From the NCBI GenBank assembly GCA_049515535.1, contig JBEKTZ010000015.1:1-64000 (forward strand): a stretch of 64,000 bases of DNA, in the 5' to 3' direction. The position numbers were made by a program, and so were the translations under genes. Source of the stretch: Candidatus Aminicenantales bacterium. GTDB taxonomy: Bacteria > Acidobacteriota > Aminicenantia > Aminicenantales > UBA4085. The notes under the pieces are model-generated. The model was given only the letters and a program-made list of their open reading frames with translations, did no database searches and had not been told where the DNA came from. This document shows positions 16,901 to 50,751 of this stretch, piece after piece. Position 1 is the stretch's first letter, and each line of letters opens with the position of its first letter.

Positions 16901-17017
16901 GCCGTCGCCGTGACCGGAGGGCTGATCAGCTCCACGTTCCTGACTCTTGTCGTGATCCCGGCCGTTTACCGCCTGATGGGAAAGCGAACCCTGACCCCCG
17001 GAGAAAAACGTTCATGA
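13931..17017 (+). CDS. RND efflux permease (AcrB/CzcA family)
   Basis: 1028 aa; TM4 [35 protein letters not shown]. Confidence 0.93.
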
Positions 17018-27249: not shown

Positions 27250-27843
27250 ATGGCGACGCAGATTCTTGATGGGGCAGAAGCCATGAGTATTGGCGGCAAC
27301 GAACAGGAGCGGAGTCTCGCCCTGGCCGCGCAACGCGGCGATTCGGGAGCGTTTCGGGAACTCTACGATGCTTATCGCGAGCGGATCTGGACCCTGGTCG
27401 TTTATTCGATCGGAGATGCCCTCCAGGCCCAGGACGTGCTGCAGACCGTCTTTCTTAAGGCATTCCGGGGTCTCCGGAGTTTCAGGTTTCAATCCAGTCT
27501 GTTTACGTGGATTTACCGGATCGCCTGCAATGAATGTCGGAATTATCACCGGCGGCGCGGCATTCGGCACGTGCCTCTCGAGGCGATTCTCGGCAGCAGC
27601 GACGAAATGGATAGGAGGCCCATCTCGGACGGCCTCGAGGCGCGCAGGGTCATCCTGCGAAACGCGGTGATACAATTGCCTTTCAAGATGCGGGATGTCA
27701 TCGTGCTGAAGTACGTCGAAGAGCTTTCCTATGAAGAGATGAGCCGGGTGCTCGGGTGCTCGCCCGGGACGGTGGCTTCAAGGCTGAACCGGGCGTTGGC
27801 GGAACTCGAAGAAAGGCTGCGGCCTTTCAGGCGATTCTTGTGA
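27250..27843 (+). CDS. ECF RNA polymerase sigma factor
   Basis: GD..AF.ELY, AQDVLQTVFLKA, FTWIYRIA.N, LSYEEMS.VLG...GTV.SRL.RA; start may be 27283. Confidence 0.93.
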   Translation: MATQILDGAEAMSIGGNEQERSLALAAQRGDSGAFRELYDAYRERIWTLVVYSIGDALQAQDVLQTVFLKAFRGLRSFRFQSSLFTWIYRIACNECRNYHRRRGIRHVPLEAILGSSDEMDRRPISDGLEARRVILRNAVIQLPFKMRDVIVLKYVEELSYEEMSRVLGCSPGTVASRLNRALAELEERLRPFRRFL

Positions 27844-27871
27844 AGAAATCGGAAAGCAAGGAGTATCGGCG

Positions 27872-28600
27872 ATGAGTTGCTTGCGTTTTGGCCTGCGAAA
27901 GAAGTTCGTGCCTTATCTTGAGGGTGAACTCCCGCCTCGCGAGGCGAAGCGAGTGGAGAAGCATCTGCTCGACTGCGGACGGTGCCGGGCCATATTTGGC
28001 CGGCTTCGAGCCGGACACCGGTCGGCGCAGCAACTCCGTCACCTCAGCCCGGATGGCGCTCATCCCGCGCCTGAGTTCGAAACGATGATGGCCGATGTCG
28101 GCGAAATTGTCCCTGTCCGCCACAAGTGGGTTCGGGCGTGGGAGGATTGGTTCTATGCGCTGACAACTCCTCGCCTGGTCCAGGTCCTCATGGTGTTGGT
28201 GCTGGCCCTGACGGCGGTCCTGGTGGTTTCGAACCGGAGATATTTGTTCGGAGATCGGAACAGCGGCCTGGATAAATCGACGGCTCTGAAATTCAGCGAA
28301 TTCCATCCACTCAGTATCCCCGAGCTCCAGTCGAACACCCGGCCTCACATCGCGATCGAAGGTTACGTGCGCGACGTCCATATCGATCAAGAGGAAGGGA
28401 CCCTGCATTTCACGTTGGCGGAGATCCCGCAAGGGTTAGGACCCTTTGTCATATGCGAGATCATGAGCCCGATCGGGATGCCTATCCCGCGCGACGGCAA
28501 TCGCGTCCGCGTCTACGGCGTGGCCCGCTACGACGCCCAACCCGGCCGCGAGTGGTACGAAGTCAATCCCGTCCTGAACATCGCCGTCCTGAAGCGCTGA
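27872..28600 (+). CDS. Anti-sigma factor (zf-HC2) with TM helix and extracytoplasmic OB-fold-like domain
   Basis: YLEGEL...HLLDCGRC (HxxxCxxC); TM helix; C-terminal beta-rich IEGYV..V.....G..H....G.RVRV.G....W.EV.P. Confidence 0.85.
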   Translation: MSCLRFGLRKKFVPYLEGELPPREAKRVEKHLLDCGRCRAIFGRLRAGHRSAQQLRHLSPDGAHPAPEFETMMADVGEIVPVRHKWVRAWEDWFYALTTPRLVQVLMVLVLALTAVLVVSNRRYLFGDRNSGLDKSTALKFSEFHPLSIPELQSNTRPHIAIEGYVRDVHIDQEEGTLHFTLAEIPQGLGPFVICEIMSPIGMPIPRDGNRVRVYGVARYDAQPGREWYEVNPVLNIAVLKR

Positions 28601-28610
28601 GAGGCAACGT

Positions 28611-30137
28611 ATGTCGCCCATGGCCGGGGGGAAAAAGATTATTGCCGCGTTTTTCATCGCCGCCGTCCTCATCTATTATGGGTGGCTCCTGGGAACGAAT
28701 CTTTGCACCGTGGCGGGAGGCTCGGACAGCTCGGGCTACCTGAATTTCGCCCGGCGGCTGAGGAACGGGCCCCTGGTGGAACCCGTGAAAACCGTGGAGG
28801 CTCTCGGCCTGAGCGAGGAATTCCGTCCGCTCTTTCAGCCGATCGGATTCACGAGGGGCTCCCGGAGCCAGACTATCGCTCCCGCTTATCCCCCGGGACT
28901 GCCCCTGCACATGGCTGCGTTGGCCGCGATTCTCGGCTGGAAAATCGGCCCATTTCTTGTCAGCCCGCTGGCGGCTTTGGCTGGGTTGTTTCTCATCTAT
29001 GGCCTCGCCCGACAATTGGGGCTGTCAAGGCCGCTGTCCTTGGTCGGAGGGTGCGTTTTAGCCGCGTTTCCCGCATATCTGTTCATCGCCGTTCAGCCCC
29101 TGAGCGATGTTCTGGCGAGCTTCTGGGGCATGTTCGCCGTCCTCGCCGCCCTGCTTTCGCGGAAGCGCGCCGGCTGGGCGTGGGCCGCGGGGGCGGCCTT
29201 CGGCCTGGGCGTTCTCGTGCGACCCTCCAACATGTTGATCCTGTTTCCCCTGCTTTGGGCGTTGCCGTCGAAGCCGAAAATCTTCCTGAAATTTTTTTTT
29301 GGCGGCTTTTTTTTCGGCTTCGTCCAATTCTTTTTCAACCGGGTCCTCTATGGAAGCGTGTTCACTACCGGCTATCGAGAGGAGGCGGCCGGCGCGTTCG
29401 CGATTCGGAATTTTCCCACTCTTTTCCTTTTTTTCGGCCGATGGCTCTCCCGCATGTTGACGCCTCTCGTTCCCTTGGCCTGGCCGGCGCTCATTGCCGA
29501 CCGGAACGTGCCGCGCCGGGACAGGCTCCTCCTTGTTTTCTGGTTCGCTCCGTTCCTGATTTTCTACGGCTTGTACCAGCCGTTTGAAAGCTGGACCTTT
29601 GTCCGCTTCTTCCTTCCCGCCCTGCCGGCGCTGATCCTTTCCGCTCTGCTGCTCTTGCGGGACGGCACGAATTATGCCCTCGAGAAAATCCGCGCCGCTC
29701 GATTCCGGGATTCCAAGACGCGGGAGATCCTGGCTTGGATTCCCAGGGTCATGGCCGGTCTGCTTGTCGTCCTGGTCGTTCACGCGGAAATCGGCCAGGT
29801 CAAGAAATTGAAGCTTTTGGATGTCAATGAATTCGAATCCGTTTACGAGCAAAGCTGTCTCGCCGTCAAAGGCCGATTGCCGGAGACGTCGATCCTCGTC
29901 TCCGGGCAATTGAGCGGAGCTCTGACCTTTTACACGCATTTCCCGATCTGCCTTTGGGATTCCCTGCGGCCGCAGTCCTTTTTTCTCCTTCAGCAAAAAG
30001 CGGCGCTCCGCGGCTGGGGCCTCTATGCTCTCCTTTTTCCAAGCGAAGAGAAAGAATTCCAAAACTTCGCGCCCGGTCCGTGGGAGAAAATCGAAAGCTA
30101 TCGCTTCGTCTCCCTTTGGCAATACAAACCGAAATGA
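28611..30137 (+). CDS. GT-C fold membrane glycosyltransferase (PMT/ArnT/GT39-like)
   Basis: GGSDSSGY after TM1, YPPGLP, PLSD, VRP, RFFLP; many TM helices. Confidence 0.75.
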   Translation: MSPMAGGKKIIAAFFIAAVLIYYGWLLGTNLCTVAGGSDSSGYLNFARRLRNGPLVEPVKTVEALGLSEEFRPLFQPIGFTRGSRSQTIAPAYPPGLPLHMAALAAILGWKIGPFLVSPLAALAGLFLIYGLARQLGLSRPLSLVGGCVLAAFPAYLFIAVQPLSDVLASFWGMFAVLAALLSRKRAGWAWAAGAAFGLGVLVRPSNMLILFPLLWALPSKPKIFLKFFFGGFFFGFVQFFFNRVLYGSVFTTGYREEAAGAFAIRNFPTLFLFFGRWLSRMLTPLVPLAWPALIADRNVPRRDRLLLVFWFAPFLIFYGLYQPFESWTFVRFFLPALPALILSALLLLRDGTNYALEKIRAARFRDSKTREILAWIPRVMAGLLVVLVVHAEIGQVKKLKLLDVNEFESVYEQSCLAVKGRLPETSILVSGQLSGALTFYTHFPICLWDSLRPQSFFLLQQKAALRGWGLYALLFPSEEKEFQNFAPGPWEKIESYRFVSLWQYKPK

Positions 30138-32620
30138 AATCTCCGATGGTCCGTCATCCGAAAGTCAAAAAATTCTTGGCGGGATCGGTCGTCTGCATTC
30201 TTTTCGCGGGAGTCACGCTTTTGCAGACCTTCCCGCTTTCCCTCGATCCCGCGCATGCGGTCTATGATCCGGGCGATCCGCTCTTGAATGTCTGGATCCT
30301 GTCCTGGGTCGGCGAGCATCTCGTCCAGGGGCCGTTCCGCCTCTTTGAGGCGAATATTTTCTATCCGTATCACCAAACGCTTGCCTTCTCGGAGCATTTG
30401 CTCCCGCTCAGCGTTCTGTCGGCCCCCGTTTATTTCCTGTCGCGGAATCCCATTCTCCGCTACAACCTCCTCCTCTACCTGACCTTCATCCTCAACGCCC
30501 TGGGGATGTTTTTTCTCGTTAGACATTTGACCCGGAACAAATGGGCGGGCGTCGTCAGCGGTCTTATTTTTTCCTTCAGCGCTTTCAAGATCATGCACAT
30601 CTCGCACCTTCAACTTCTGAGCTCGATGGGTATTCCCTGGTGTTTCCTCTATCTCCATAAATGGATGGCTGAAAAGAAATGGACGAACGCTGCCCTTTTC
30701 TCGTTTTTCTTTTTGCTGCAGGCCCTCAGCTGCGTCTATTATGGGCTCTTCTCGATGGCCATTCTGGTTTTGATCCTTCCCCTCTTTCTCCTTTTCAATA
30801 AGCGGTCGTTCGATCTTCCCTCGCTGGCGAAGCTGGCCGCCCCTCTCGTTCTCGCCGGCGGCATCCTGTATGCCTTCTCCCTTCCCTACCTGCGAGTTTT
30901 TCGCGCGCTCGGCTTGAAACGGGGATTGGCGGCGGGAGCGGAAGTCCAAAACTACCTGGCCGTCCTCCCGACGAATCTCCTTTTCGGCCGGCTCCTGTCC
31001 GGATGGGGCGAGCCTGAGAGATATCTTTTTCCCGGCCTGGCCGCCTGCGTCTTGATGATCGTCGCGATCGCCGGCAGGAGCATGTTTGCGGCCGGGGCCG
31101 ATCGAAGCGGGATTGTCCGGCGTATCGGCAGCGTCGCGAAGATCCTTTTCCTCGCCCTCGTGGCCGCGAACCTCCTGAGCCTTGTCGTCGCCCTGGCGGG
31201 GGGCGTCAGCTTTGCCTGGGGCGGACTCAAGTTTTCGGCGAACCGGGCGGAAAAACCCCTTCTCTTTCTTTTTATCCTTGGCGCTCTCTTTCTTGCCGCC
31301 AAGGTTTTCGAACGCCTCAGGGCCCGGCCAGAAGCGGACCGGAGCGCCTGGATTCTGGGCTATTCAATTCTGGCGTTCTGGGCCGCTCTGCTGTCGTTCG
31401 GCGCCGTTTTCACGCTCTCGGGAAAGACCACGACGGCTTTTCCGATGCCCTTTCCCTGGTTTTTCCGGCATGTGACCGGGTTTGACGGGATCAGGGAGCC
31501 GGCCAGAATCTCCGTTTTCGTGCTTTTCGGCATCAGCGTCCTGGCCGGCTTCGGCTGGGAACGGATCCTGGCCAAAATGACTAAAAAGGCCTGGCGGGGC
31601 GTCTTGACGGGAGCCCTCCTTGTTTTCATCAATCTCGAGTATCTTTCCATTCCCATCGAAGGCATCTCCGTCCCTGTCGGGAAGGATCTCCCGCCCACCT
31701 ACGCATGGCTCAAAGAGCAAAGGAAGGAAGCCGTTGTCCTGGAGCTTCCGTTCGCCGAGTGGATCCCCTGTGAGGCCCTCTATCTTTATTTCTCCACGTA
31801 CCACAAAAAAAGAATCGTCAACGGCTATAGCGGGTTCATCCCGGCTTCGGCCTATTGGCTGAAGGAGACGTTCAGGAAATTCCCCGATCCGGAGAGTCTC
31901 CGTCTTTTGGAAGCCCTCCACGTGGATTTTGTCGTTTTTCACGCGAAGCTGCTCCCCCCGGCGTTCGTTCCCGGCGTCGCGGCGCAAAGCGAATCCCTCA
32001 CCGGCGGAGAGCTCCGTCTGGCCGCGCGTTTTCAATATCCCTTCTCCCGGCCGAACACGTTCAAGGAATTTCTCGGGGACGATCTCGTCTTCTCCGTCCA
32101 TCCGGAACGCGCTTTCCGGAAATCGGGACCGGCCGAGGAGTCGCCGGCCATGGCCGAAATCCCTTCCGACCAATGGCGGATCACGGTCTCTCAAAATCAG
32201 CCGGCGGCTTCTTTGATGACGGACAAGGATCTTGCCTCCGGCTGGACGTCCGAGAAGGCGATCAGGCCCGGTGAATTCATCCAGATCGACCTCGGAAAAG
32301 CCCGTGATGTCCGCAGGGTTTCCATTTTTGGCGGCGCGACCTATTATGATTACGGCCTGGATTTTCAGATGGAAATCTCAGATGACGGGGCTCATTGGCG
32401 GCCCGTCCCATCGCGGTTCTCGAAGGCGGAATTTTGTCTTTCGCTCATCGCGGATCAGGTCCATGCTAATCAAGATCTGTGGCTGGAGGGCGGCCCGGCC
32501 AGATATCTGAAGATCATCCAGACGGGGAAAAGCGAGGCGTTCTCCTGGTCGGTCTCGGAATTGCGGATTTTCGAACGCCTGCCCTCAACCGGACGTCAGG
32601 CCCCAAACGAGGCGCGCTAG
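30134..32620 (+). CDS. GT-C/YfhO-like membrane protein with C-terminal discoidin (F5/8 type C) domain
   Basis: GDPLLNVWIL, EANIFYP, IREPAR, VNGYSG; C-terminal W....IQIDLG...SDDG..W...ARYLKI....WSVSEL; ATG overlaps the upstream stop. Confidence 0.78.
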   Translation: MKSPMVRHPKVKKFLAGSVVCILFAGVTLLQTFPLSLDPAHAVYDPGDPLLNVWILSWVGEHLVQGPFRLFEANIFYPYHQTLAFSEHLLPLSVLSAPVYFLSRNPILRYNLLLYLTFILNALGMFFLVRHLTRNKWAGVVSGLIFSFSAFKIMHISHLQLLSSMGIPWCFLYLHKWMAEKKWTNAALFSFFFLLQALSCVYYGLFSMAILVLILPLFLLFNKRSFDLPSLAKLAAPLVLAGGILYAFSLPYLRVFRALGLKRGLAAGAEVQNYLAVLPTNLLFGRLLSGWGEPERYLFPGLAACVLMIVAIAGRSMFAAGADRSGIVRRIGSVAKILFLALVAANLLSLVVALAGGVSFAWGGLKFSANRAEKPLLFLFILGALFLAAKVFERLRARPEADRSAWILGYSILAFWAALLSFGAVFTLSGKTTTAFPMPFPWFFRHVTGFDGIREPARISVFVLFGISVLAGFGWERILAKMTKKAWRGVLTGALLVFINLEYLSIPIEGISVPVGKDLPPTYAWLKEQRKEAVVLELPFAEWIPCEALYLYFSTYHKKRIVNGYSGFIPASAYWLKETFRKFPDPESLRLLEALHVDFVVFHAKLLPPAFVPGVAAQSESLTGGELRLAARFQYPFSRPNTFKEFLGDDLVFSVHPERAFRKSGPAEESPAMAEIPSDQWRITVSQNQPAASLMTDKDLASGWTSEKAIRPGEFIQIDLGKARDVRRVSIFGGATYYDYGLDFQMEISDDGAHWRPVPSRFSKAEFCLSLIADQVHANQDLWLEGGPARYLKIIQTGKSEAFSWSVSELRIFERLPSTGRQAPNEAR

Positions 32621-34276: not shown

Positions 34277-34422
34277 AGCCATCCTCCGGTCTCTTCAAGG
34301 GAGATACGGACTTCTCCGTGACCTTGGCCCGTTTCTTGAGATCATTCTCCCGCCATGCCGGGAATCTGTCGCCCTCGCCATCCGGAACGCACGGTTCTCT
34401 ATCGGACGCATCAGGTTCTCTC

Positions 34423-34491
34423 GAGTGTGGCGGCTCGATGAAGATCGTCGCCTTTATCACAGACCACGAGGCAGTCGAAAAGTAAATTCTT
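34423..34491 (+). pseudogene. Remnant of an IS91/ISCR-like transposase C-terminus
   Basis: Translates ECGGSMKIVAFITDHEAVEK*IL, resembling the C..CGG.M.I.AFIT....I..IL end of IS91-family transposases. Confidence 0.6.
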
Positions 34492-34536
34492 ATAACCCCA
34501 GCCGCCGTTTCCAAATTGTGCCCGCCGAAAAATCGA

Positions 34537-34565
34537 TTGACGCATGGATTTTCGGGACGTATAAT
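34537..34565 (+). promoter_or_regulatory. Near-consensus sigma70 promoter for the Cys-rich operon
   Basis: TTGACG-N17-TATAAT; GGAGGAGGTG RBS before ATG 34613. Confidence 0.75.
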
Positions 34566-34612
34566 CTAACCATAATCGAGGGGCCTTCCCCGGTTCAGGG
34601 AGGAGGTGCTTT

Positions 34613-35662
34613 ATGGCTCGGATCATCCGTCACAAAGAGGTTCTTGGGGCTTTCACCGTCCTCGTCGTTTTCGCCCTTCTGTTTCTCTGGGGCCAGAGTT
34701 CTGCCGCTAAAACCAGTCCGGCGGCGGCCGATTCCGCGGCCCTCTCGGCCGCACGCGTCGATGCCGCCACGATGCCGGCCGCTCCGCCGGCCATGACCTA
34801 TCGCGCCGGAACGCCGCCGAAGTACACCGAATCGGTCTGGGATTTCCTCAGCTATCAGACCTACACGATGGGCGTTTATCTGAGCAACGTCGAAACGTCG
34901 AAGCTGACGACGACGCAGATCACGACCATCACCCGCGACTTCGGCGCCTGGTTGAAGAGAGCCTTCCCCAACGCCAACCGCGACTACCGGGCTCTCTGCC
35001 TGGTCAAATATCCGAACTCGGTCAAAGCCCTGCAAACGCCCAAGGGCACCGCGGAGTCGATCATGAAGGCCGGGTATTTTTCCGAGGCGATCATCACCTT
35101 TGGCCGGAATTTCTCCAACTCGGCCAACTATCAGAAGACGATCAACGGCTTCTACCAGGACTACCTGAAGCGGCCGGAGAAAAATCGTCCCGTTCCGCAG
35201 GCCCAGTTCGTCGGTATCCTGGAGGGTTACGGCAAGTGGATCTCGGCCCTCGATGATTGCGTGACGATCAACACCGCCGGGGCCCGGGGCGCCGGCGGGA
35301 ACCAGGTCGCGGCCGCCCAGAGCTGCGGCGTCTGTGTCGGGCCGATCATCATATCCGCGAACAACATGAGCTGCGGCGTCTGCGTCATCACCCTCTCCGG
35401 GGCCGGCGCGGCCAGCTGCGCCCAGCAGACCTGCGGCGGCGGCATCACCTGCGGCAACAACGCTTCGACCTGCGGGGCCACCTGCGGACAAGCCGCGACC
35501 TGTCTGGGCGTGACCTGCGGCGGCGGAACGTGTCTCGGCGTTTCGTGTTCTTCTAACACCTGCGGCGTGGCCCTGACCTGCGGCTCGGGCGTCGCCACTT
35601 GCGGTGCGGCCACGTGCGCGGGCGCCAGTTCGTGCGCCCTTGTATGTGACGTAAAACGGTGA
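34613..35662 (+). CDS. Exported protein with C-terminal [S/T]C-repeat Cys-rich tail
   Basis: Signal peptide-like N-terminus; 11 TC and 5 SC dipeptides in the last ~115 aa; strong RBS and promoter. Confidence 0.85.
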   Translation: MARIIRHKEVLGAFTVLVVFALLFLWGQSSAAKTSPAAADSAALSAARVDAATMPAAPPAMTYRAGTPPKYTESVWDFLSYQTYTMGVYLSNVETSKLTTTQITTITRDFGAWLKRAFPNANRDYRALCLVKYPNSVKALQTPKGTAESIMKAGYFSEAIITFGRNFSNSANYQKTINGFYQDYLKRPEKNRPVPQAQFVGILEGYGKWISALDDCVTINTAGARGAGGNQVAAAQSCGVCVGPIIISANNMSCGVCVITLSGAGAASCAQQTCGGGITCGNNASTCGATCGQAATCLGVTCGGGTCLGVSCSSNTCGVALTCGSGVATCGAATCAGASSCALVCDVKR

Positions 35663-35674
35663 CGGTTATCCGTA

Positions 35675-38077
35675 ATGCCGGCTGACTCCAGGCGAAGCCG
35701 GCGGGTCGTCCTTTTCGCGTCGGGGTTCGTTCTTCTCGGCCTGATCGCCGGATGGGTCACTCCGCTCGAGATGCCGTCCCTCCGGGCCGCCGCGTTGACC
35801 CTCGGCTTGGGGATCGTCCTCACGGGCGGCTCAAACCGGAAGGGGAGCGCCGTGCTCACGATCGCCGCTCTCGCCGCCTGCTTACTAATCTTTTTCGCCG
35901 CGACACCCGTCCAGGCTCTGTTTTGCCTGGCCGCGGCGACGGCCGTGTCTTTTCCGTGGCCGGGCGCATTCGCCCGCGGCTTGCGGACCGCGCTCCTCGG
36001 CGCCGGAGGCGTTCTCCTGCTTTATCATATGTCGCCGGCTATCGCTGCGGCGTTGAACAACGCGGCCGCCTCGCTGACGAAAGCCTTATCGCCCGGGGGC
36101 GGACTGATCCTGGGCTGGAACGAAAGCGGGTTGTTCGCCATGGGCGCGGCCATGGCCGCCGTGCTGTCGGCCGCGGGTTTCCGGCGCGGACGGATCATCC
36201 GCGCCCTCGCCGCGGCGGCCGGATTTGCCGTCGCCTGGATCGTCCTGGTCAACCTTCGTGCTCATTTTCCTGAAGGGAACTTCACGTCTTCCCTTGTCTG
36301 GCAGCTCGGATGGCTGGAGTTCCTCGGTCTGGCGAGCGGATGGGCCGTCAGCCTCGTTTCCTGCGGATCGTCCGCTCTTCCCACTCGCGCACGCTCGGTC
36401 CGGATCATCCTCGCCGCCGGTCTCACCGCGATTTTCTGCTTGGTCATCTGGTTCGGACTCCGCCCCGGCGCCGGCCTTGGACACCCGCTCAAGATCGGCC
36501 TCTGGCAGGGCAAGTTCATCGGCACCTGGGAGATGCCGAGCTGGGAAAGGCCGGGTGTCGAGCTCACGTCGGCCCACTTCGGAATGCTGCCATCGTATTT
36601 GAAGGCTCTCGGCTGGAAAATCGAGACCTTCGGTCCCGATCTCTCGTCCGACCGCCTCGCCGGCCTCGACGCGGTCTTGGTCATCAACCCGCTCGAGCTC
36701 TCGGACGGGACCGTGTCGGCCTTCCGCGATTTCGTCTCGCGCGGCGGCGGACTTCTCGTCGCCGGCGACCATACGAACATGTTCGGCCTCCGAGCTCCCG
36801 TCAACCGCCTTCTCGCCGGCACCGGGATCTCCCTGGGCGATGATACGGTCATACCGGCCCGCGAAACCTGGCCGGGGTCGCTCGATATCGTCGGAGACCG
36901 CTGGTGGACGGCCGGGGTGTCCGAGACCTTCCTCGGATATGGCGTCGGTGCTTCGCTCGATGTCCGCCGGCCCGGACGTCCGCTCCTCATTGGCCGGGCC
37001 GCTTTCGCGGACGGGCCCAACCCCGATGATCCCTCCGGGAACCACATCGGCGATTACACGCAGCGTCCGGGAGAACCGATCGGCGGATTGACCCTGGTCG
37101 CTTGGGCGCCCGTGGGGCGCGGGCGACTCGTCGCCTGCGGCGACACGTCGATCTTCCAGAGCCTGAGCCTGAGGACCAGTCATTCGTTCGTCCGGCATCT
37201 CGTCGAATTCGCCGCGGCTGGAGCTTTGTCAGGCGGTCCAGCTGGACGCGTTTCCCCCTGGGGCTTACTCTATCCGGCGCTCCTGGGCGTGTTCGGTCTT
37301 TTGGCGCTCTTCCTTGCTGGCGGGATCGGCCCGCTCGCTCGTGCCCTCGTTCCGCTCGCCTTCGCCGCCGTGATCGCGACCGCGTCGTTCTCCGCGCGCG
37401 CCGAGGTCGAAAGGTTTAATGCCGTCCCGGGCTCGCGGGTCGCGGCGGTGGACCTCTCCCACGCCAATGCCTTCGATCCCCGCGGTGCGACCGACGACAG
37501 CGTGGACGGCCTCTACCTCAATCTCATGCGGGCGGGGTATCTTCCCGTTAACGCCCCGCGCGGACTGGCCGGGTTCGCCGGCGGCGCCGGGGTGGAGGCG
37601 GCCATCGTGATTGCTCCGACACGCCCCCTCGGCCCGGCCGAACGCGACGCCCTGCTCGACCTCGCCGACAAAGGCGGCCTGGCCCTGATCGCGGCCGGGG
37701 CGCGTGAGGAGCCGTTCACGCGCGACCTGCTCGCGGCGGCCGGGCTTAAACTTCGCCCGGTCGCTCTGGGCCCCGTGCCGTACCTCGATTCCTCGACCCC
37801 GGGTCCCTGGACGAACCAGCCCCGGTTCAGCGACACCTGGCCTCTCGAGATCGACCCGGCGGGCCCTGCCCGCTCCCTCTACGGCGTGGAGCTCGGCGGA
37901 CGCGGCTGGGACATCATCGCCGAGGCGCCTCGCGGCCGCGGCCGGATCCTCGTGATCGCCGACCCGCGCTTTTTCTGCGATATGAACCTCGAAGCCATCG
38001 GGACGTACTGGAAGCCGAACATCGATCTGTTGCGGCAGCTCCTGGGCGGGAACACGGATGGAAAAGACGAACATTAG
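35675..38077 (+). CDS. Multi-pass membrane protein with two class I GATase-like (DUF4350-like) domains
   Basis: N-terminal TM bundle; DAVLVINP...FVSRGGGLLVAGDHT...GRGRLVACGD; TM pair; VDLSH...GRGRILVIAD. Confidence 0.78.
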   Translation: MPADSRRSRRVVLFASGFVLLGLIAGWVTPLEMPSLRAAALTLGLGIVLTGGSNRKGSAVLTIAALAACLLIFFAATPVQALFCLAAATAVSFPWPGAFARGLRTALLGAGGVLLLYHMSPAIAAALNNAAASLTKALSPGGGLILGWNESGLFAMGAAMAAVLSAAGFRRGRIIRALAAAAGFAVAWIVLVNLRAHFPEGNFTSSLVWQLGWLEFLGLASGWAVSLVSCGSSALPTRARSVRIILAAGLTAIFCLVIWFGLRPGAGLGHPLKIGLWQGKFIGTWEMPSWERPGVELTSAHFGMLPSYLKALGWKIETFGPDLSSDRLAGLDAVLVINPLELSDGTVSAFRDFVSRGGGLLVAGDHTNMFGLRAPVNRLLAGTGISLGDDTVIPARETWPGSLDIVGDRWWTAGVSETFLGYGVGASLDVRRPGRPLLIGRAAFADGPNPDDPSGNHIGDYTQRPGEPIGGLTLVAWAPVGRGRLVACGDTSIFQSLSLRTSHSFVRHLVEFAAAGALSGGPAGRVSPWGLLYPALLGVFGLLALFLAGGIGPLARALVPLAFAAVIATASFSARAEVERFNAVPGSRVAAVDLSHANAFDPRGATDDSVDGLYLNLMRAGYLPVNAPRGLAGFAGGAGVEAAIVIAPTRPLGPAERDALLDLADKGGLALIAAGAREEPFTRDLLAAAGLKLRPVALGPVPYLDSSTPGPWTNQPRFSDTWPLEIDPAGPARSLYGVELGGRGWDIIAEAPRGRGRILVIADPRFFCDMNLEAIGTYWKPNIDLLRQLLGGNTDGKDEH

Positions 38078-40496
38078 CTGGCTCCTCCTCGGGGCCGCGA
38101 TGATCTGGTCCGAAGGGACCTTCGGCTGGCGGAGTGCCGCCGGCAGCGCGGCGCTGATCGCCGTTGCCGTAGCCTGGCTCTGGAAGTCTGGCGCTCTCTC
38201 AGCGGCGGGCGTTTCGGCCGCGCGGCCCGCGTATGCGCTTCGCGTTCTTTCCGCGGCCGCGCTGCTGGGCCTGGCTGTCTGGATGGGCGGCGCTTACATT
38301 TATCTCTCCGCCCTCGTCGCGCTGGCTCTCGTTCTCGACCGCGGAGCCGCGCCCCAGGTCCGCCGCTTGATGGATGCCGTTCTCGCCGCGGCCTGGTTCA
38401 TCGGCCTCATGACGCTTGTCCGGGCCGTCGTCGGGGCCCGCCTTCATGACCTGCCCGCGGCGACGCCCATTCTTGCCGCCGTCGTGCGCGCCCTCGGCTT
38501 CAACGCCTCGTTCCAGGGATATATCGTTCACGTCCAGCAATCGCATCAGGTTCTCTCCGTCGCAGTCAGCTGGCCGCTTCTCGGCGGATGGGCGATCCTC
38601 GCCCTCGTCGTCGGCCCGATCGTTCTATTCTTTACGGGCTCGATCAAGCCGCGCCTTGGTCAGATTCTCAAATTCGCCGCGGCGCTCGTTGCCGGCGCCC
38701 TGATCCGCCTCGTGCTGATCGTCGTCTTCCTCACGGAAGCGCCTTCCCGGGTGACGGTCCTCTTCCATCCGCTCGTCCAGCTCGCGACGATCCTTCCCAT
38801 TCTTCTTGCGCTTCGCGGCTGGGAGAGGCGGGAGACGGCCCGCTCATTCCGCGCGGCCGCCCTCTTCCGCGTCGGTCTATTTGCCCTTGCCGGGATCGGC
38901 CTTGGGATGGCTCTGTTCTGGATGCCGGCCGGATCGGTCAAAGCCGGCCGCCTGATGATCGACGAGACGCATTCGAACTGGGAACTCTCGACCGAGAAGA
39001 TGGACACCCATTGGTATGGGCGGTACTCGACTTACAGCTTCTGGACGCTGGCCCGCTGGCTCGATCATTTCTACGAAGTGAGGACCCTGACATCCGGCCG
39101 TCTCGACGCGGCCGCTCTCGCCGCCGGCGATGTTCTCATGCTCAAGTGCCCGACCCGCGCCTATGAGCCCGCTGAGGTCGCGGCCGTGCTGGATTTCGTC
39201 CGGGGAGGCGGGGGAGTCCTGATGGTCGGCGACCACACCGACGTCTTTTCCATGAACACCTACCTGAACCAGATCGCCGGGCCCCTCGGCCTGCATTTCA
39301 ATTATGACGCGACCTATGATTTTCTGACCGGCGCGCTTTCGAATTTCCAACCGCCCCGTGGCGGGCGCCATCCGATCGTCCGCGGCGTCGATGAGTTCGA
39401 TTTTATGACCAGCTGCACCCTGTCCCTGGGCCGGAACGCGCGGCCGGTCATCGTCGGGCCGGGGCTCATCGTCGGCCAGGCCGATTACTCGACCCAGAAT
39501 TTTTTCGACCGGCCGAGCCCGTTCATCAAGGCGGGGAGCCTCCCGGGGGCGTTCGTCCAATCGGCCGCCGGCGAATACGGCCGCGGCCGGTTCTTCGCCT
39601 GGACGGACAGCACGTGCTGGTCGAACTTCTCCGTCTTGATGGACGGCAACCCAGCCCTCATCCAGGGCGTGATGGCGTTTCTGAACCATCGCGCCGCTCC
39701 GATCGATGGACGGGTCGCGGGGTTGATCGTGATGACGCTGGCCGCGGTGATCCTGGCGGCTCTACGGAAAAAAGGGGGCCGCCCTATGCGGGATGTCGCG
39801 ACGACCGCGTTCCTGGCCGGCGTTATGGCCACGGCCCTTCTTGCGTCCGTTCTGCACGCGCGGATTTATCGGCCGCCAGCACCGCGGACTGAGATGACCC
39901 GGGTCGCCTTCGACCTGGCCCACGGCGATTTTATCCTCCGGCCCGCTTCGGGAATGTCCGTGGACATCAACCGGAGCGACCGGAAACTTCTCGACCTATC
40001 CACTTTCTATGTCTGGAGTCAGCGCCTCGACCTTTTCCCGAATGAGGCCCTCGGCTGGAGCGAACTCGAACAAGCCTCCATGGTCGTTCTGCCGCTGCCC
40101 GGCCGCAACTTGAGCGAAAAGGACGCCAAGCGGCTTCTCGCCTGGGTGCGCGGCGGAGGCCGGCTCCTTGTCCTGGCCGACGCCCAACACGAATCATCGC
40201 GGGCGCATCTCCTTCTCAACCCGGCCGGACTCGCTGCCATACCCGGGATCGCTTATACGGGCTACGGCACGCCCGTCCTGACGATTCAGGGAGGCGAGGT
40301 TCTCTGGAAAGACGACCGCGGCCGCGTCGTCGCCGCGCGCGCACGGCTGGGAAAGGGGATGATCGTGGCCTGCGGTGTCGCCCGCACCTTCGGCGCGGCG
40401 GTCATAGGCGGGGTGTTCACCGAACCGGATGCCGACCGTGAACGCGTTTACGAATTCGAGTATACTCTCCTCCGTGCCTGCCTCGAACTCAAATGA
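38058..40496 (+). CDS. Paralogous membrane protein with exosortase-like TM region and two GATase-like (DUF4350-like) domains
   Basis: IDETH...DVLMLKCP...FVRGGGGVLMVGDHT...GRGRFFAWTD; FDLAH...GKGMIV; overlaps the upstream ORF by 20 bp. Confidence 0.78.
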   Translation: MEKTNISWLLLGAAMIWSEGTFGWRSAAGSAALIAVAVAWLWKSGALSAAGVSAARPAYALRVLSAAALLGLAVWMGGAYIYLSALVALALVLDRGAAPQVRRLMDAVLAAAWFIGLMTLVRAVVGARLHDLPAATPILAAVVRALGFNASFQGYIVHVQQSHQVLSVAVSWPLLGGWAILALVVGPIVLFFTGSIKPRLGQILKFAAALVAGALIRLVLIVVFLTEAPSRVTVLFHPLVQLATILPILLALRGWERRETARSFRAAALFRVGLFALAGIGLGMALFWMPAGSVKAGRLMIDETHSNWELSTEKMDTHWYGRYSTYSFWTLARWLDHFYEVRTLTSGRLDAAALAAGDVLMLKCPTRAYEPAEVAAVLDFVRGGGGVLMVGDHTDVFSMNTYLNQIAGPLGLHFNYDATYDFLTGALSNFQPPRGGRHPIVRGVDEFDFMTSCTLSLGRNARPVIVGPGLIVGQADYSTQNFFDRPSPFIKAGSLPGAFVQSAAGEYGRGRFFAWTDSTCWSNFSVLMDGNPALIQGVMAFLNHRAAPIDGRVAGLIVMTLAAVILAALRKKGGRPMRDVATTAFLAGVMATALLASVLHARIYRPPAPRTEMTRVAFDLAHGDFILRPASGMSVDINRSDRKLLDLSTFYVWSQRLDLFPNEALGWSELEQASMVVLPLPGRNLSEKDAKRLLAWVRGGGRLLVLADAQHESSRAHLLLNPAGLAAIPGIAYTGYGTPVLTIQGGEVLWKDDRGRVVAARARLGKGMIVACGVARTFGAAVIGGVFTEPDADRERVYEFEYTLLRACLELK

Positions 40497-40517
40497 TCGC
40501 CCGCCTCGCCGGCCATA

Positions 40518-41231
40518 TTATTTCTTTATCCTATATCCCGCTTTCTTTATGCAAGCCCGCGCGGCGATTTGCATCGGCTCAATGAGAGGGACGGAGAGGT
40601 CCGATTCCCGCAGGACGAGCGGGACCTCGGTGCATCCCGCGATGACGGCTTGGGCGCCGCGGCCGATGAGCCGGCGGGCGGCCCGGACAATCATGGTCCG
40701 CGGGCGTCCCGACGCGAATCCCGCTTTGATGCCGCAGTCGCCGAGGATGGCTTCCATGACCGCCTTTTGTTCGCGCTCATCGGGCGTCAGGATCTCGATC
40801 TTTTTTTTCCCGAAGACGTCATGCCAGAGCCGGGATTCCACTGTTCCCGTGGTGGCGATGAGTCCCGCTTTCTTGAGGCCGGGGATGTTGACGGCGGCGT
40901 AGCGCAAGGCCTCATCGAGAAGGTTGACGAACGGCACGTTCGACCGGGTTTCGATTTTCGAAGCCCAGTAATGGGCCGTGATGCAGGGCATGACGATCAG
41001 CTCCGCCCCTCCCTTTTCCAGGATCTTCACGCCTTCGAGGAGCGAGGGGAGCGGGCTGCGGCGGCCGTCGAGGATGGCGTCCGTCCGCGGCGGGATTTTT
41101 GGGTTGTTCCAGACCAAGACTCGAATGTGCTCCTGGTCCGAGAGGGCGTCCGTGTTTTTTATGATCAGGCCGAAAAAATAAGCCGTCGCTTCGGGCCCCA
41201 TCCCCCCGAGGACGCCGATCGTCTTCTTCAT
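40518..41231 (-). CDS. Aspartate/glutamate racemase
   Basis: IGVLGGMGPEAT, IPPRT, PCITAH, GCTEVP. Confidence 0.93.
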   Translation of the reverse strand: MKKTIGVLGGMGPEATAYFFGLIIKNTDALSDQEHIRVLVWNNPKIPPRTDAILDGRRSPLPSLLEGVKILEKGGAELIVMPCITAHYWASKIETRSNVPFVNLLDEALRYAAVNIPGLKKAGLIATTGTVESRLWHDVFGKKKIEILTPDEREQKAVMEAILGDCGIKAGFASGRPRTMIVRAARRLIGRGAQAVIAGCTEVPLVLRESDLSVPLIEPMQIAARACIKKAGYRIKK

Positions 41232-48261: not shown

Positions 48262-48307
48262 AATCCCCCCTTCCCCCTCCTTTAGAAAAGGGGGGTGAGG
48301 GCGGATT
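48262..48307. repeat. REP-like imperfect palindrome
   Basis: aatcccccc...ccctccttt-aga-aaagggggg...ggatt. Confidence 0.45.
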
Positions 48308-48354
48308 TGATGAAGTCTTGTGTCCCCTCCGGATTGTCTATAAAATGGGGGCGC

Positions 48355-50751
48355 ATGCTGAAGTATTTCGACCGCTATATTCTCAAGGAGGTCGTCCCGC
48401 CGTTCTCCATCGGGCTCCTGATCTTCAGCTTCGTTTTTCTCATGGATTGGCTCCTCCGGACGCCCGAGCTTTTTATCGCCAAAGGCGTTTCCCTCGGCGT
48501 CACGCTCAAGCTGCTCATCTATCTCATCCCCGCGATCCTTGCCTTCACCGTGCCGATGTCGGTCCTGATGGGCATTCTCGCCGGGCTGAGCCGGCTCTCC
48601 TCCGATTCCGAGGTCACGGCCTTAAAAACCCTGGGCATCCGGCCTTTCCGCATGCTCCGCCCGCTTCTCGTCTTCGCCCTCGGCGGCTGGATCCTGACCT
48701 CGGTTTTAACCCTTTACCTGGCCCCCTATTTCAACTATCAATGGGACCAGACGCTGGCCGCCGCCGTTCTCAACAAGGCGGAATTGCAGTTCAATGCCCG
48801 TGAATTCAACGAATCCACGGCGAATATGGTCCTGTTCATCGAGGACATCAACCGAGACAAGAGCTGGCGGGACGTCTTTCTCTATTTTACCGATACCGCG
48901 GACGAGCCGCGGGTCGTGTTGGCCCGCCAAGGGCAGATGCACATCTATCCCGACGCGAAACGAGCGGTCCTCGAGCTTTTCGATTCGATCCAGCATTCGG
49001 GCTCTCTCTCCGATCCTGAAAAATATTACCGCGTTGAGTCCTCGGCGCACATCACCCAGGAGCTCGAAGCCGAGAATCTTTTCCCCTCCTATTCGCCGGA
49101 AAAGCGGGTGCGGATGAAAAACATCCGGGAACTTGGGCAGGGGCTGAGGGCCGTCGAGGCCCGGCGTCCGCTTTTGGACCTCGACAAGCGGGACGTCGAG
49201 CGACGCCGGCTCAAAAAAGACGATTTCCAGAGCATCGAAAACGCCGCGGCCATCGCCCAATCGGAGCACGACCGGCGGGCCTATCAGGTGGAAATCCAGA
49301 AGAAGTACGCGCTGCCCTTCGCCTGTTGGATCTTCGTTTTCCTCGGCCTGCCGTTGGGGAGCTCGACGAAGAAGGGCGGGCGGACGAGCGGCTTCACCCT
49401 CAGCATCGTCATCATCCTCGTCTATTATATTCTCATCACCGCCGGGGAGAAGACGGCCATGGACGGCCGCATCTCGCCCTTCATGGGGATCTGGGGCGGG
49501 AATATCCTCTTCGGGCTATTCAGCCTTTTTCTTTTTTCGAGATCCGCCCGCGATCTTACGGCCTTCGCTTCCGTCCTGTCCTTCGCCCGCCGGTTCCGCC
49601 GCGCGGAAGCGGCGGCGCCCTCCGACGCCGCCGGGGGGCGGCGCGGACCGCGGCTCTCCCTGCCTTTTCCGAACATCCTGGACCGCTATCTCATCAGGCG
49701 CTATCTCTTCATCGGCGTTCTGATCTTCGCCGGCCTCATTTCCATCTTTGTTATCGTCACTCTGTTCGACCGGATCGGAAATATCTATGAGCATCACAAG
49801 CCGCTCTCCATGCTTTTAACCTATATTCGATACCGGATCCCCGAATTCATCCATTACAGCCTGCCCGTGACGGCCTTGATGTCCGTCCTCCTGACCCTCG
49901 GCCTGTTCACAAAATCCAACGAGATCACGGCGATGAAAGCCTGCGGGATCAGCGTCTACCGGGTGGTGGCGCCCTTGATCGTGCTGGCCGTGTTCGTCGG
50001 CGGGATGGCCTTTCACATCCAGGAGAACATTTTACCGCGATCCAACAAGAAAGCGGAGGAGATGTGGAACAGGATCAATGACGTGACGCCGCGGACCTAC
50101 AGCTATGAGAACCGCCGCTGGGTTCTCAGCAAGAACGGGGACCGGTTTTACCATTACAGCTATTTCGATCCGAAGACCTCGACGTTCAACCGGCTCTCGA
50201 TCTTCGACCTCGACTTCACCCGCTGGGCGATCACGCGCCGGGTTTTCGCGGAGAAGGCCGTCTTGAAAGGCCCAAGCCTGCACTTGGAAAACGGCTGGAT
50301 CCGGGAATTCGCCGGGGACAAGCAGGTGAAATTCGAGAAGCAAACGGCCGCGGACCTGCCGCTCGCGGAAGGCGAGAGCCTTTTCTTGCAGGAAAGCAGG
50401 GAACCGGCGCAGATGACCTACGGAGAGCTGCGGCGGCACATTCAAGACGTTGGGAACATGGGATTCGACACCACCCACTTCCGCGTCGACCTGGGCGCGA
50501 AAATATCGTTCCCCTTCGTCGCCCTGATCATGACCCTCCTCGGCATTCCCTTCGCTTTTTCCATGGGAAAGCGCGGCGCTCTCGTCGGCATCGGGATCGG
50601 CCTGGCCGTCTCGATCGTTTATTGGGTGACCATCGGGATTTTTCTGAGTCTCGGTTACGTGAGTTTTCTCAATGCGTTTCTCGCGGCCTGGGGCCCGAAT
50701 TTGATCTTCGGCCTGATCGGTCTGTCCCTGCTCTTCCGGCTGCGAACCTAG
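48355..50751 (+). CDS. lptF/lptG: Fused LptF-LptG LPS export permease
   Basis: Two YjgP/YjgQ-type halves (FDRYIL...SE..A...G; LDRYL...NEITAMKACG...AAWGPN). Confidence 0.9.
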   Translation: MLKYFDRYILKEVVPPFSIGLLIFSFVFLMDWLLRTPELFIAKGVSLGVTLKLLIYLIPAILAFTVPMSVLMGILAGLSRLSSDSEVTALKTLGIRPFRMLRPLLVFALGGWILTSVLTLYLAPYFNYQWDQTLAAAVLNKAELQFNAREFNESTANMVLFIEDINRDKSWRDVFLYFTDTADEPRVVLARQGQMHIYPDAKRAVLELFDSIQHSGSLSDPEKYYRVESSAHITQELEAENLFPSYSPEKRVRMKNIRELGQGLRAVEARRPLLDLDKRDVERRRLKKDDFQSIENAAAIAQSEHDRRAYQVEIQKKYALPFACWIFVFLGLPLGSSTKKGGRTSGFTLSIVIILVYYILITAGEKTAMDGRISPFMGIWGGNILFGLFSLFLFSRSARDLTAFASVLSFARRFRRAEAAAPSDAAGGRRGPRLSLPFPNILDRYLIRRYLFIGVLIFAGLISIFVIVTLFDRIGNIYEHHKPLSMLLTYIRYRIPEFIHYSLPVTALMSVLLTLGLFTKSNEITAMKACGISVYRVVAPLIVLAVFVGGMAFHIQENILPRSNKKAEEMWNRINDVTPRTYSYENRRWVLSKNGDRFYHYSYFDPKTSTFNRLSIFDLDFTRWAITRRVFAEKAVLKGPSLHLENGWIREFAGDKQVKFEKQTAADLPLAEGESLFLQESREPAQMTYGELRRHIQDVGNMGFDTTHFRVDLGAKISFPFVALIMTLLGIPFAFSMGKRGALVGIGIGLAVSIVYWVTIGIFLSLGYVSFLNAFLAAWGPNLIFGLIGLSLLFRLRT

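Follow-up and report, generated by a model that had tools for sequence, protein, structure and literature searches.

In our study, the plus-strand open reading frame (ORF) at positions 34613..35662 of a 64,000-nucleotide stretch of contig JBEKTZ010000015.1 (Candidatus Aminicenantales bacterium, assembly GCA_049515535.1; the whole stretch is called the window here) was found to encode a protein of 349 amino acids (aa) with a regular cysteine-rich tail. To judge from the sequences compared, the protein is a member of a tiny, undescribed family in which the [ST]-Cys repeat is conserved and of unusual regularity. Our preferred reading, which is held tentatively and at rather less than even confidence, is that the tail forms a disulfide-braced repeat module of small residues, composed of two-Cys units and carried by an exported envelope protein. 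The initial annotation of this DNA had taken the tail for one like that of a RiPP precursor (RiPP, a peptide synthesized on ribosomes and modified post-translationally). That reading found no support: no modifying enzyme was located in the neighbourhood, YcaO and MNIO proteins were not detected in the genome, and the supposed precursor was protein-sized with a Sec-type N-terminus.

Reading Frame and Distribution of the Gene

The plus-strand frame at 34613..35662 is a real coding frame, conserved and under purifying selection, because homologues of 42–48% identity could be aligned with the protein over its full length, the ratio of nonsynonymous to synonymous substitution rates (dN/dS) against a homologue of 77% identity was 0.15 in the N-terminal domain and 0.33 in the tail, the GC content at third codon positions (GC3) of the gene was 0.81, and both a promoter and a ribosome-binding site preceded the ATG. 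The sigma-70-like promoter TTGACG-17-TATAAT (34537..34565, plus strand) matched 11 of the 12 consensus positions, ended 48 bp 5' of the start codon and was the sole site of such quality within 34300–41000. A putative ribosome-binding site, GGAGGAGG, was read from the sequence 5' of the ATG at about 34599–34606 on the same strand. The stretch 35321–35662, to which the initial annotation was confined, is the 3' end of this frame; the codon of residue 237 begins at 35321 and the stop codon ends at 35662.

When 5.8 billion clustered proteins were searched, six related clusters (P0001–P0006) were recovered, with identities of 42–98%, and the JGI metagenome locus L007 supplied one further relative, the homologue of 77% identity mentioned above. 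A second metagenome locus proved to be the sequence of the window itself, from which it differed at 1 of 14,560 bases. The family was not found in 40 genomes of the same family or order, nor in 400 genomes sampled across the phylum, and none of the 14 pattern matches from a scan of the GTDB species set was confirmed as a family member. The DNA runs that carried the gene were peat and soil metagenomes; 24 runs were listed with the locus sequence, with no RNA run among them. The gene was present in contigs of four DNA runs from other peat metagenome studies, which differed by point changes only, without insertions or deletions. A literature search for papers that pair 'Aminicenantes' with 'cysteine-rich' returned none.

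The N-terminal domain and the tail were also searched separately, as the initial annotation had proposed. With residues 1–235 as the query, phmmer returned three matches among 1.84 billion representatives, namely P0006, P0008 (a fragment of 39 aa) and P0007. The last of these, a repeat protein of 1,681 aa, was not accepted as a relative; only residues 191–217 were matched, eight times, and the hit was regarded as a repeat-inflated local match. The repeat unit of P0007, EDCGGWVSAMDTCLGKTGKV, aligned with residues 191–217 at an E value of 6e-14, probably a repeat-inflated similarity to the LEGYGKWISALDDCVT stretch. Tail-only searches returned nothing at E values up to 0.01, either among shorter proteins (27 candidates) or among longer ones (510 candidates), and no short stand-alone relative of the tail was present among the 5.8 billion proteins.

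The Cysteine-Rich Tail and Its Conservation

The last 113 residues contained 11 TC and 5 SC dipeptides, which agrees with the 16 [ST]C units counted in the initial annotation, and 19 of the 21 Cys residues of the whole protein. The spacings between successive tail Cys were 3, 13, 3, 12, 5, 6, 7, 4, 6, 5, 5, 5, 5, 6, 7, 5, 6, and 4. Six residue types (G21, C19, A16, S12, T12, and V10) accounted for 90 of the 113 residues; aromatic residues, His and Met-rich motifs were absent. The tail begins with two CxxC-type elements of the sequence SCGVCV at residues 237–242 and 253–258 (35321..35419, plus strand), which were located in the translation and in the alignment of homologues, with the hydrophobic GPIIISANNM between them and ITLSGAGAAS after them. 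These are followed by the [ST]-C repeat run at residues 269–349 (35417..35659, plus strand), which contains 15 Cys spaced 4–7 residues apart and ends in CDVKR. The two SCGVCV repeats, the Cys spacing of 4–7 and the restriction to mostly small residues thus stand as the initial annotation had described them. From C269 onward the run can be divided into roughly seven two-Cys units of 10–13 residues each, and a tandem duplication of 10 residues was found within the tail (TCLGVTCGGG / TCLGVSCSSN).

A six-frame scan of the 3.45-Mb genome, which is 94% complete, was made for open frames of at least 60 aa with at least 8 Cys in some window of 60 aa. Sixty-nine frames passed, and the pattern of the tail was unique in the genome, because its frame contained 11 [ST]C in its 60-aa window and the next best of these Cys-rich frames only 6.

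The initial annotation had named a loss of Cys spacing among homologues as the result that would speak against it. The spacing was conserved: Cys were kept in 86 of 94 alignment cells, and the eight misses were one-residue shifts or, at the last Cys of P0006, a somewhat longer shift by a few residues. Where Ser or Thr precedes Cys, one or the other was kept in 71 of 75 cells. The two distant homologues accounted for 28 of 30 such cells, although only 27 of the 86 remaining tail positions were identical in them. From the junction onward the number of Cys was even in all eight sequences (20, 20, 16, 20, 20, 20, 18, and 20). Three indel events were found in the tails, each of which lost exactly two adjacent Cys. 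The SCGVCV elements varied among the homologues; CxxxC was present at both places in P0005 and at the first place only in P0006, and one SCGVCV copy was deleted in P0002.

The tail had no usable neighbour in the ESM Atlas, and a profile of six tails matched no PDB chain at E values up to 10 and gave no relevant match in NCBIfam.

The N-Terminal Half and the Junction Motif

The secreted-type N-terminus and the domain of about 200 aa that the initial annotation had pointed out were both recovered, the former by eye and the latter as a helical domain in an AlphaFold2 model. A putative signal peptide or signal anchor occupies residues 1–32 (34613..34708, plus strand), with basic residues R3, R6, and K8, a hydrophobic core of 18 residues and a WGQxxA motif that was kept in every homologue whose N-terminus was present. 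The hydrophobic segment extends over about residues 7–32, and AlphaFold2 placed a helix at residues 4–32. The basic region, the hydrophobic core and a small-x-small site (SSA/A) were judged by eye to be those of a Sec-type signal; from the sequence, the segment may be a Sec-type signal peptide or a signal anchor, and the presumed cleavage was placed by the −3/−1 rule alone.

A poorly conserved low-complexity spacer rich in Ala and Pro follows at about residues 33–60 (34709..34792, plus strand), with a predicted local distance difference test score (pLDDT) below 50. The next segment, at about residues 61–213 (34793..35251, plus strand), was modelled by AlphaFold2 as an all-helical domain of unknown fold, with a pLDDT of 60–91 in its best helices. 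This domain had no sequence match in Pfam, NCBIfam or PDB and no structural match at Z of at least 5 when it was compared by VIA-align with 48,161 chains. In the ESM Atlas it had no usable feature match, and the structural rows had TM scores of 0.40 or less.

The helical domain is joined to the tail by the motif [DE]DCVTINTAGAR at residues 214–225 (35252..35287, plus strand), which contains C216, the 20th conserved Cys. The motif was identical at all positions but the first (D/E) in the alignments of 7 and 6 rows and in the translation of L007. A Gly/Ala-rich linker, GARGAGG, had been described before the tail by the initial annotation. These residues are present, but the region is no plain linker, because TINTAGAR, its only conserved part, belongs to the invariant motif of 12 residues. 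The start of an intein or Hint domain at C216, a double-glycine leader site (TAGA/R), N-glycosylation sequons and C-terminal sorting tags were also considered around this protein; all were rejected by eye, since the other motifs that define them were missing and neither Pfam nor NCBIfam gave a match.

A Proposed Disulfide-Braced Envelope Module

The even number of Cys fits a pairing of these residues, as far as the sequences go. The tandem duplication and a composition limited to G, C, A, S, T, V, N, I, and L match what is expected of a repeat module. In the genome, a VKOR-DsbA fusion of 443 codons was found on contig C5 (54424–55752, minus strand), with a VKOR part (CLLC and a loop Cys pair) and a DsbA-like thioredoxin domain (CPDC); two DsbD_TM proteins were found as well, and DsbB was not. 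Disulfide formation and reshuffling outside the cytoplasm are therefore possible in this organism, because the VKOR-DsbA ORF and the two DsbD_TM proteins are encoded.

In the mechanism that we propose, the product would be exported by Sec and function in the envelope as a protein rather than as a precursor from which a peptide is cleaved. Its helical domain and final 136 residues would then lie outside the cytoplasm, and the N-terminal helix would be either cut behind WGQxxA or retained as an anchor. The 20 conserved Cys, that is, C216 of the invariant DDCVTINTAGAR junction and the 19 tail Cys, would be joined in about ten disulfides by an oxidase of the VKOR-DsbA type, with DsbD-type proteins available for reshuffling. 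The adjacent Cys within each two-Cys unit of 10–13 residues would pair with each other, and this pairing would brace a narrow rod or solenoid made of small residues only, along which the conserved Ser/Thr hydroxyls would be aligned. The product would probably work together with two presumably co-transcribed DUF4350 membrane proteins in an envelope or surface structure. The cleavage, the formation and pairing of the disulfides, the rod shape and the contact with the DUF4350 proteins are what we infer from these data.

The building principle would be that of the 12-residue TCTxSxNCxxAx coils of the beetle antifreeze proteins, without homology. The beetle proteins (TmAFP / DhbAFP; PDB 1EZG), as far as they are described in the available part of the source, have a coil of 12 residues with one internal disulfide and small residues that point inward (PMC8038014). 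With these proteins the tail shares secretion, short tandem repeats, two Cys per unit, a Thr directly before Cys and small residues; in both, the number of repeats differs by whole units, between isoforms in the beetles and between homologues in the present family. Unlike the beetle coils, the units of the tail are irregular, with 10–13 residues in place of a regular 12-residue TCTxSxNCxxAx coil, and the tail comes from a bacterial host, is fused to a helical domain and has no sequence relation to the beetle proteins. It has no TxT ice-binding rank, because its motif is [ST]-C-G and not T-C-T.

Several observations weigh against the disulfide-braced module. Both AlphaFold2 runs left the tail unmodelled, with a pLDDT of about 25 from the full alignment (7 sequences) and 31 from the tail alone (2 sequences). 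There is no sequence link to the beetle proteins or to a solved disulfide-rich fold, because the PDB profile search was empty at E values up to 10. A comparison across the proteome, made with home-made, noisy filters of which the strict one dropped the tail protein itself, counted an even Cys number in 174/439 (loose filter) and 54/142 (strict filter) exported-like ORFs as against 418/923 cytoplasmic-like ORFs; because this is no even-Cys bias, there is no sign of wide disulfide formation in this presumed anaerobe. The parity of the tails rests on few independent lineages, and one of the deletions amounts to no more than the loss of a single copy from a pair of direct repeats. Furthermore, the Ser/Thr before Cys is conserved as well as the Cys, which a plain disulfide ladder alone would not account for.

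The Operon and Its Neighbourhood

The tail gene is followed by two genes for large polytopic membrane proteins. The first (DUF4350-A; 35675..38077, plus strand) starts 13 bp after the stop codon of the tail gene and encodes 800 aa; the second (38058..40496, plus strand) overlaps the first by 20 bp and encodes 812 aa. Both were found to contain DUF4350 / ABC_transp_aux (GldG-like) domains together with large N-terminal polytopic domains, and the second is a distant paralogue of the first, with 25% identity over 402 aa. The conserved unit is a three-gene operon, because L007 keeps this trio and its upstream gene differs; the upstream gene in L007 encodes a PD40-repeat protein, whereas that of the window encodes a polytopic protein assigned to the AZOBR_p60025 family of cell-surface glycopolymer proteins at 151 bits against a cut-off of 150, and weakly matched by GT87. 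No close relative of DUF4350-A was found in the 40 related genomes, and of 109 matches in the GTDB pattern scan none was confirmed.

The two DUF4350 genes (35675–40496) had GC contents of 0.68 and 0.65 against 0.568 in the genome, and 0.68 was reached by only 0.07% of windows of 2.4 kb. The GC3 (0.79–0.81) resembles that of neighbouring housekeeping genes; a horizontal transfer of DUF4350-A was considered and is not claimed, because the GC3 is ordinary despite the extreme GC content.

According to the part of Makarova et al. that was available, DUF4350 (arCOG01314) is predicted to lie outside the cytoplasm, anchored in the membrane, as part of a complex for secretion or membrane remodelling (PMC5898192). 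The present locus resembles the modules of that paper in the DUF4350 / ABC_transp_aux domains on both operon partners. As far as they are given there, those modules include MoxR, DUF58 and other genes, none of which is present at this locus, and they are unlike the present proteins, both of which have the large N-terminal polytopic domains. The accessible text of the papers that mention DUF4350 assigned no function to the domain.

Upstream of the operon, the plus-strand region 27250–32620 contained genes for an extracytoplasmic function (ECF) sigma factor, a zf-HC2 anti-sigma factor, a polytopic protein of 508 aa without a family match and a polytopic protein of 888 aa with a C-terminal F5/8 type C domain. 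These genes may form a unit for an envelope glycopolymer that is controlled by the ECF factor; the sigma / anti-sigma pair lies 7 kb upstream of the tail gene. Two further ORFs of the window were noted for their domains. The ORF at 17014–21744 (plus strand; 1,576 aa) combines AcrB/MMPL-type resistance-nodulation-division (RND) domains at residues 1–1030 with an ATP-binding cassette (ABC) transporter ATPase domain at residues 1306–1449, and has the appearance of an RND-ABC fusion, which would be unusual, or of two genes read through as one. The ORF at 48295–50751 (plus strand; 818 aa) has two LptF_LptG stretches and is apparently a fused LptF-LptG permease.

Search for Modifying Enzymes and Comparison With Cysteine-Rich Peptides

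Pfam and NCBIfam scans covered the called ORFs between 22.6 and 50.7 kb of the window. In this region, no family of RiPP-modifying enzymes, leader proteases or dedicated exporters was found, and two ORFs were without a family match. The families that were present included the ECF sigma and anti-sigma factors, polytopic membrane proteins, the two DUF4350 proteins, a racemase, a peptidase of family S58 and others; the lone radical SAM gene encodes lipoyl synthase.

The 94%-complete genome contained no match to YcaO (PF02624), for which the control was matched in 5 of 14 genomes. MNIO (PF05114, DUF692) was likewise not matched in the genome, with a control match in Caulobacter; its partner DUF2063 was not searched for. 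LanC-like proteins (PF05147), LanB (PF04738), and DUF4135 (PF13575) were not matched either, and the 14 control genomes were also without a match to these three. The search for SPASM or lanthionine enzymes elsewhere in the genome, recommended by the initial annotation, gave five SPASM proteins, all on other contigs and none above a peptide-maturase cut-off. One of them is an anaerobic sulfatase maturase, with 396 bits (cut-off 349); the other four were below the cut-offs of the SCIFF, CcpM, PapB, and CefB maturases; with CefB, for instance, the score was 43 bits where 600 are required. These four radical SAM/SPASM or twitch proteins (C13:16172-17224, C7:44991-45965, C2:36721-38088, and C11:73931-74893) were below every NCBIfam cut-off. 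One stand-alone C39-like domain was found, on another contig. The tails matched no NCBIfam precursor model, and in place of a short leader and core the product has 349 aa, a conserved helical domain and a Sec-type N-terminus.

The SCIFF/ranthipeptide systems and the CcpM- and CefB-type ('Cys-every-fifth') systems named in NCBIfam share with the tail a Cys spacing of about 5 residues and a small-residue core. In SCIFF cores, Ser/Thr commonly precedes Cys as well. Unlike the present protein, these radical SAM Cys-rich peptides are short and cytoplasmic, and they are encoded beside a radical SAM/SPASM maturase, of which there is no counterpart next to the tail gene. The literature search turned up no paper that uses the term 'Cys-every-fifth'.

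A second comparison concerns the bufferins (DUF2282, BUF_6/12Cys), which are Sec-exported RiPP metallophores. As reported in the available part of the source, bufferin precursors (BufA) have 80–120 residues with 4, 6, or 12 Cys, and their genes have those for an MNIO (DUF692) and its partner, a DUF2063 protein, as neighbours (PMC11626156). To the extent covered by that text, a Sec-type N-terminus, a Cys-bearing periplasmic product, a protein-like size and an ECF sigma / anti-sigma pair in the neighbourhood are common to both (PMC11626156). Unlike the bufferins, the tail protein has no Pfam match, 21 Cys in 349 aa, other neighbours and no MNIO found in its genome.

Alternative Explanations for the Tail

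The two alternatives offered in the initial annotation, a disulfide ladder and a metal-binding tail, were found to fit the data better than a RiPP precursor, and both remain candidates. A RiPP-like modification of the tail would convert [ST]C into azol(in)es, (methyl)lanthionines or radical SAM thioethers by an enzyme that was not recognised or is encoded elsewhere, with a product that is exported by Sec as in the bufferins; we consider this unlikely. Its best argument is that the [ST]C dipeptide is conserved as strongly as Cys itself, with 71/75 cells overall and 28/30 in the distant homologues, against 27/86 for the other positions. RiPP precursors with a Sec signal do exist, the bufferins being an example in the portion of the source available (PMC11626156). 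In addition, four unassigned SPASM radical SAM proteins are encoded elsewhere in the genome, and NCBIfam names maturase families for Cys-rich and 'Cys-every-fifth' peptides. RiPP cores rich in Gly, Ser and Cys resemble the tail in composition. Against this stand the operon and the 22.6–50.7 kb region, which contain no modifying enzyme, protease or dedicated exporter, and the genome, in which YcaO, LanC-like, LanB, DUF4135, and MNIO proteins were not found (controls were positive for YcaO and MNIO only). The 'leader' would be about 236 aa long with a conserved, folded domain, the tails match no precursor model of NCBIfam and have no short stand-alone counterpart among the 5.8 billion proteins, and the sole genes conserved alongside encode the two membrane proteins with GldG-like domains. 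A RiPP-like reading would need an unknown enzyme. The form of it in which each [ST]-C enters a thioether or heterocycle ladder by none of the known RiPP enzyme families, perhaps through the presumably co-transcribed DUF4350 proteins acting extracytoplasmically, seems to us improbable.

The Cys may instead stay reduced in an anoxic periplasm, where the flexible tail would bind Cu(I), Zn, Ni, Hg, or As or carry sulfane sulfur or polysulfide, and, tethered through the helical domain, would act in the periplasm as a buffer or carrier; we regard this as a possible but doubtful explanation in both its parts. It agrees with the peat and soil origin of the metagenomes that carry the gene, with the absence of an even-Cys bias among exported-like ORFs, with the ECF sigma / anti-sigma pair 7 kb upstream and with the predicted lack of structure in the tail, as apo metal-binding tails often are unstructured. 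The M-S-C-G-V-C-V element is also one that we take to resemble the M-[TS]-C-x-x-C loop of heavy-metal-associated (HMA) domains. No Pfam or NCBIfam model of HMA domains (M-x-C-x-x-C), metallothioneins or other metal-binding families was matched, however, and the spacing of 4–7 between Cys does not give the CxC/CC clusters of metallothioneins. There are just two CxxC elements, and in the distant homologues one or both of them turn into CxxxC; the tail has neither His nor Met-rich motifs. A thiolate-rich tail would also leave the even number of Cys and the strict Ser/Thr before Cys unexplained, and an oxidising VKOR-DsbA protein is encoded in the genome. The Ser/Thr of the tail could alternatively be O-glycosylated outside the cytoplasm by putative membrane glycosyltransferases of GT-C type encoded upstream, to give a mucin-like stalk cross-linked by Cys, which we think very unlikely. 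Three polytopic membrane proteins are encoded upstream, including the AZOBR_p60025-family protein with its weak GT87 match and one with a sugar-binding domain of F5/8 type C. The AZOBR-family gene is not found beside the L007 homologue, where a PD40-repeat gene takes its place; there is no known sequon, and glycosylation would not explain the Cys.

Significance of the Family

The general importance of the finding is limited for now, because the family is very small and has been found only in uncultured organisms. If the DUF4350 proteins should carry out a modification of the tail, this would be the first function for their DUF4350 architecture, and enzymatically modified [ST]C units would open a new RiPP-like class. 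If the Cys stay reduced, the tail would represent a new kind of buffer for metals or sulfur in the periplasm of presumed anaerobic peat bacteria. If the disulfide-braced solenoid is true, the tail would be the equivalent in bacteria of the beetle Thr-Cys coil, arrived at by separate evolution, and a compact new scaffold, and the two unstudied DUF4350 membrane proteins would gain a candidate partner.

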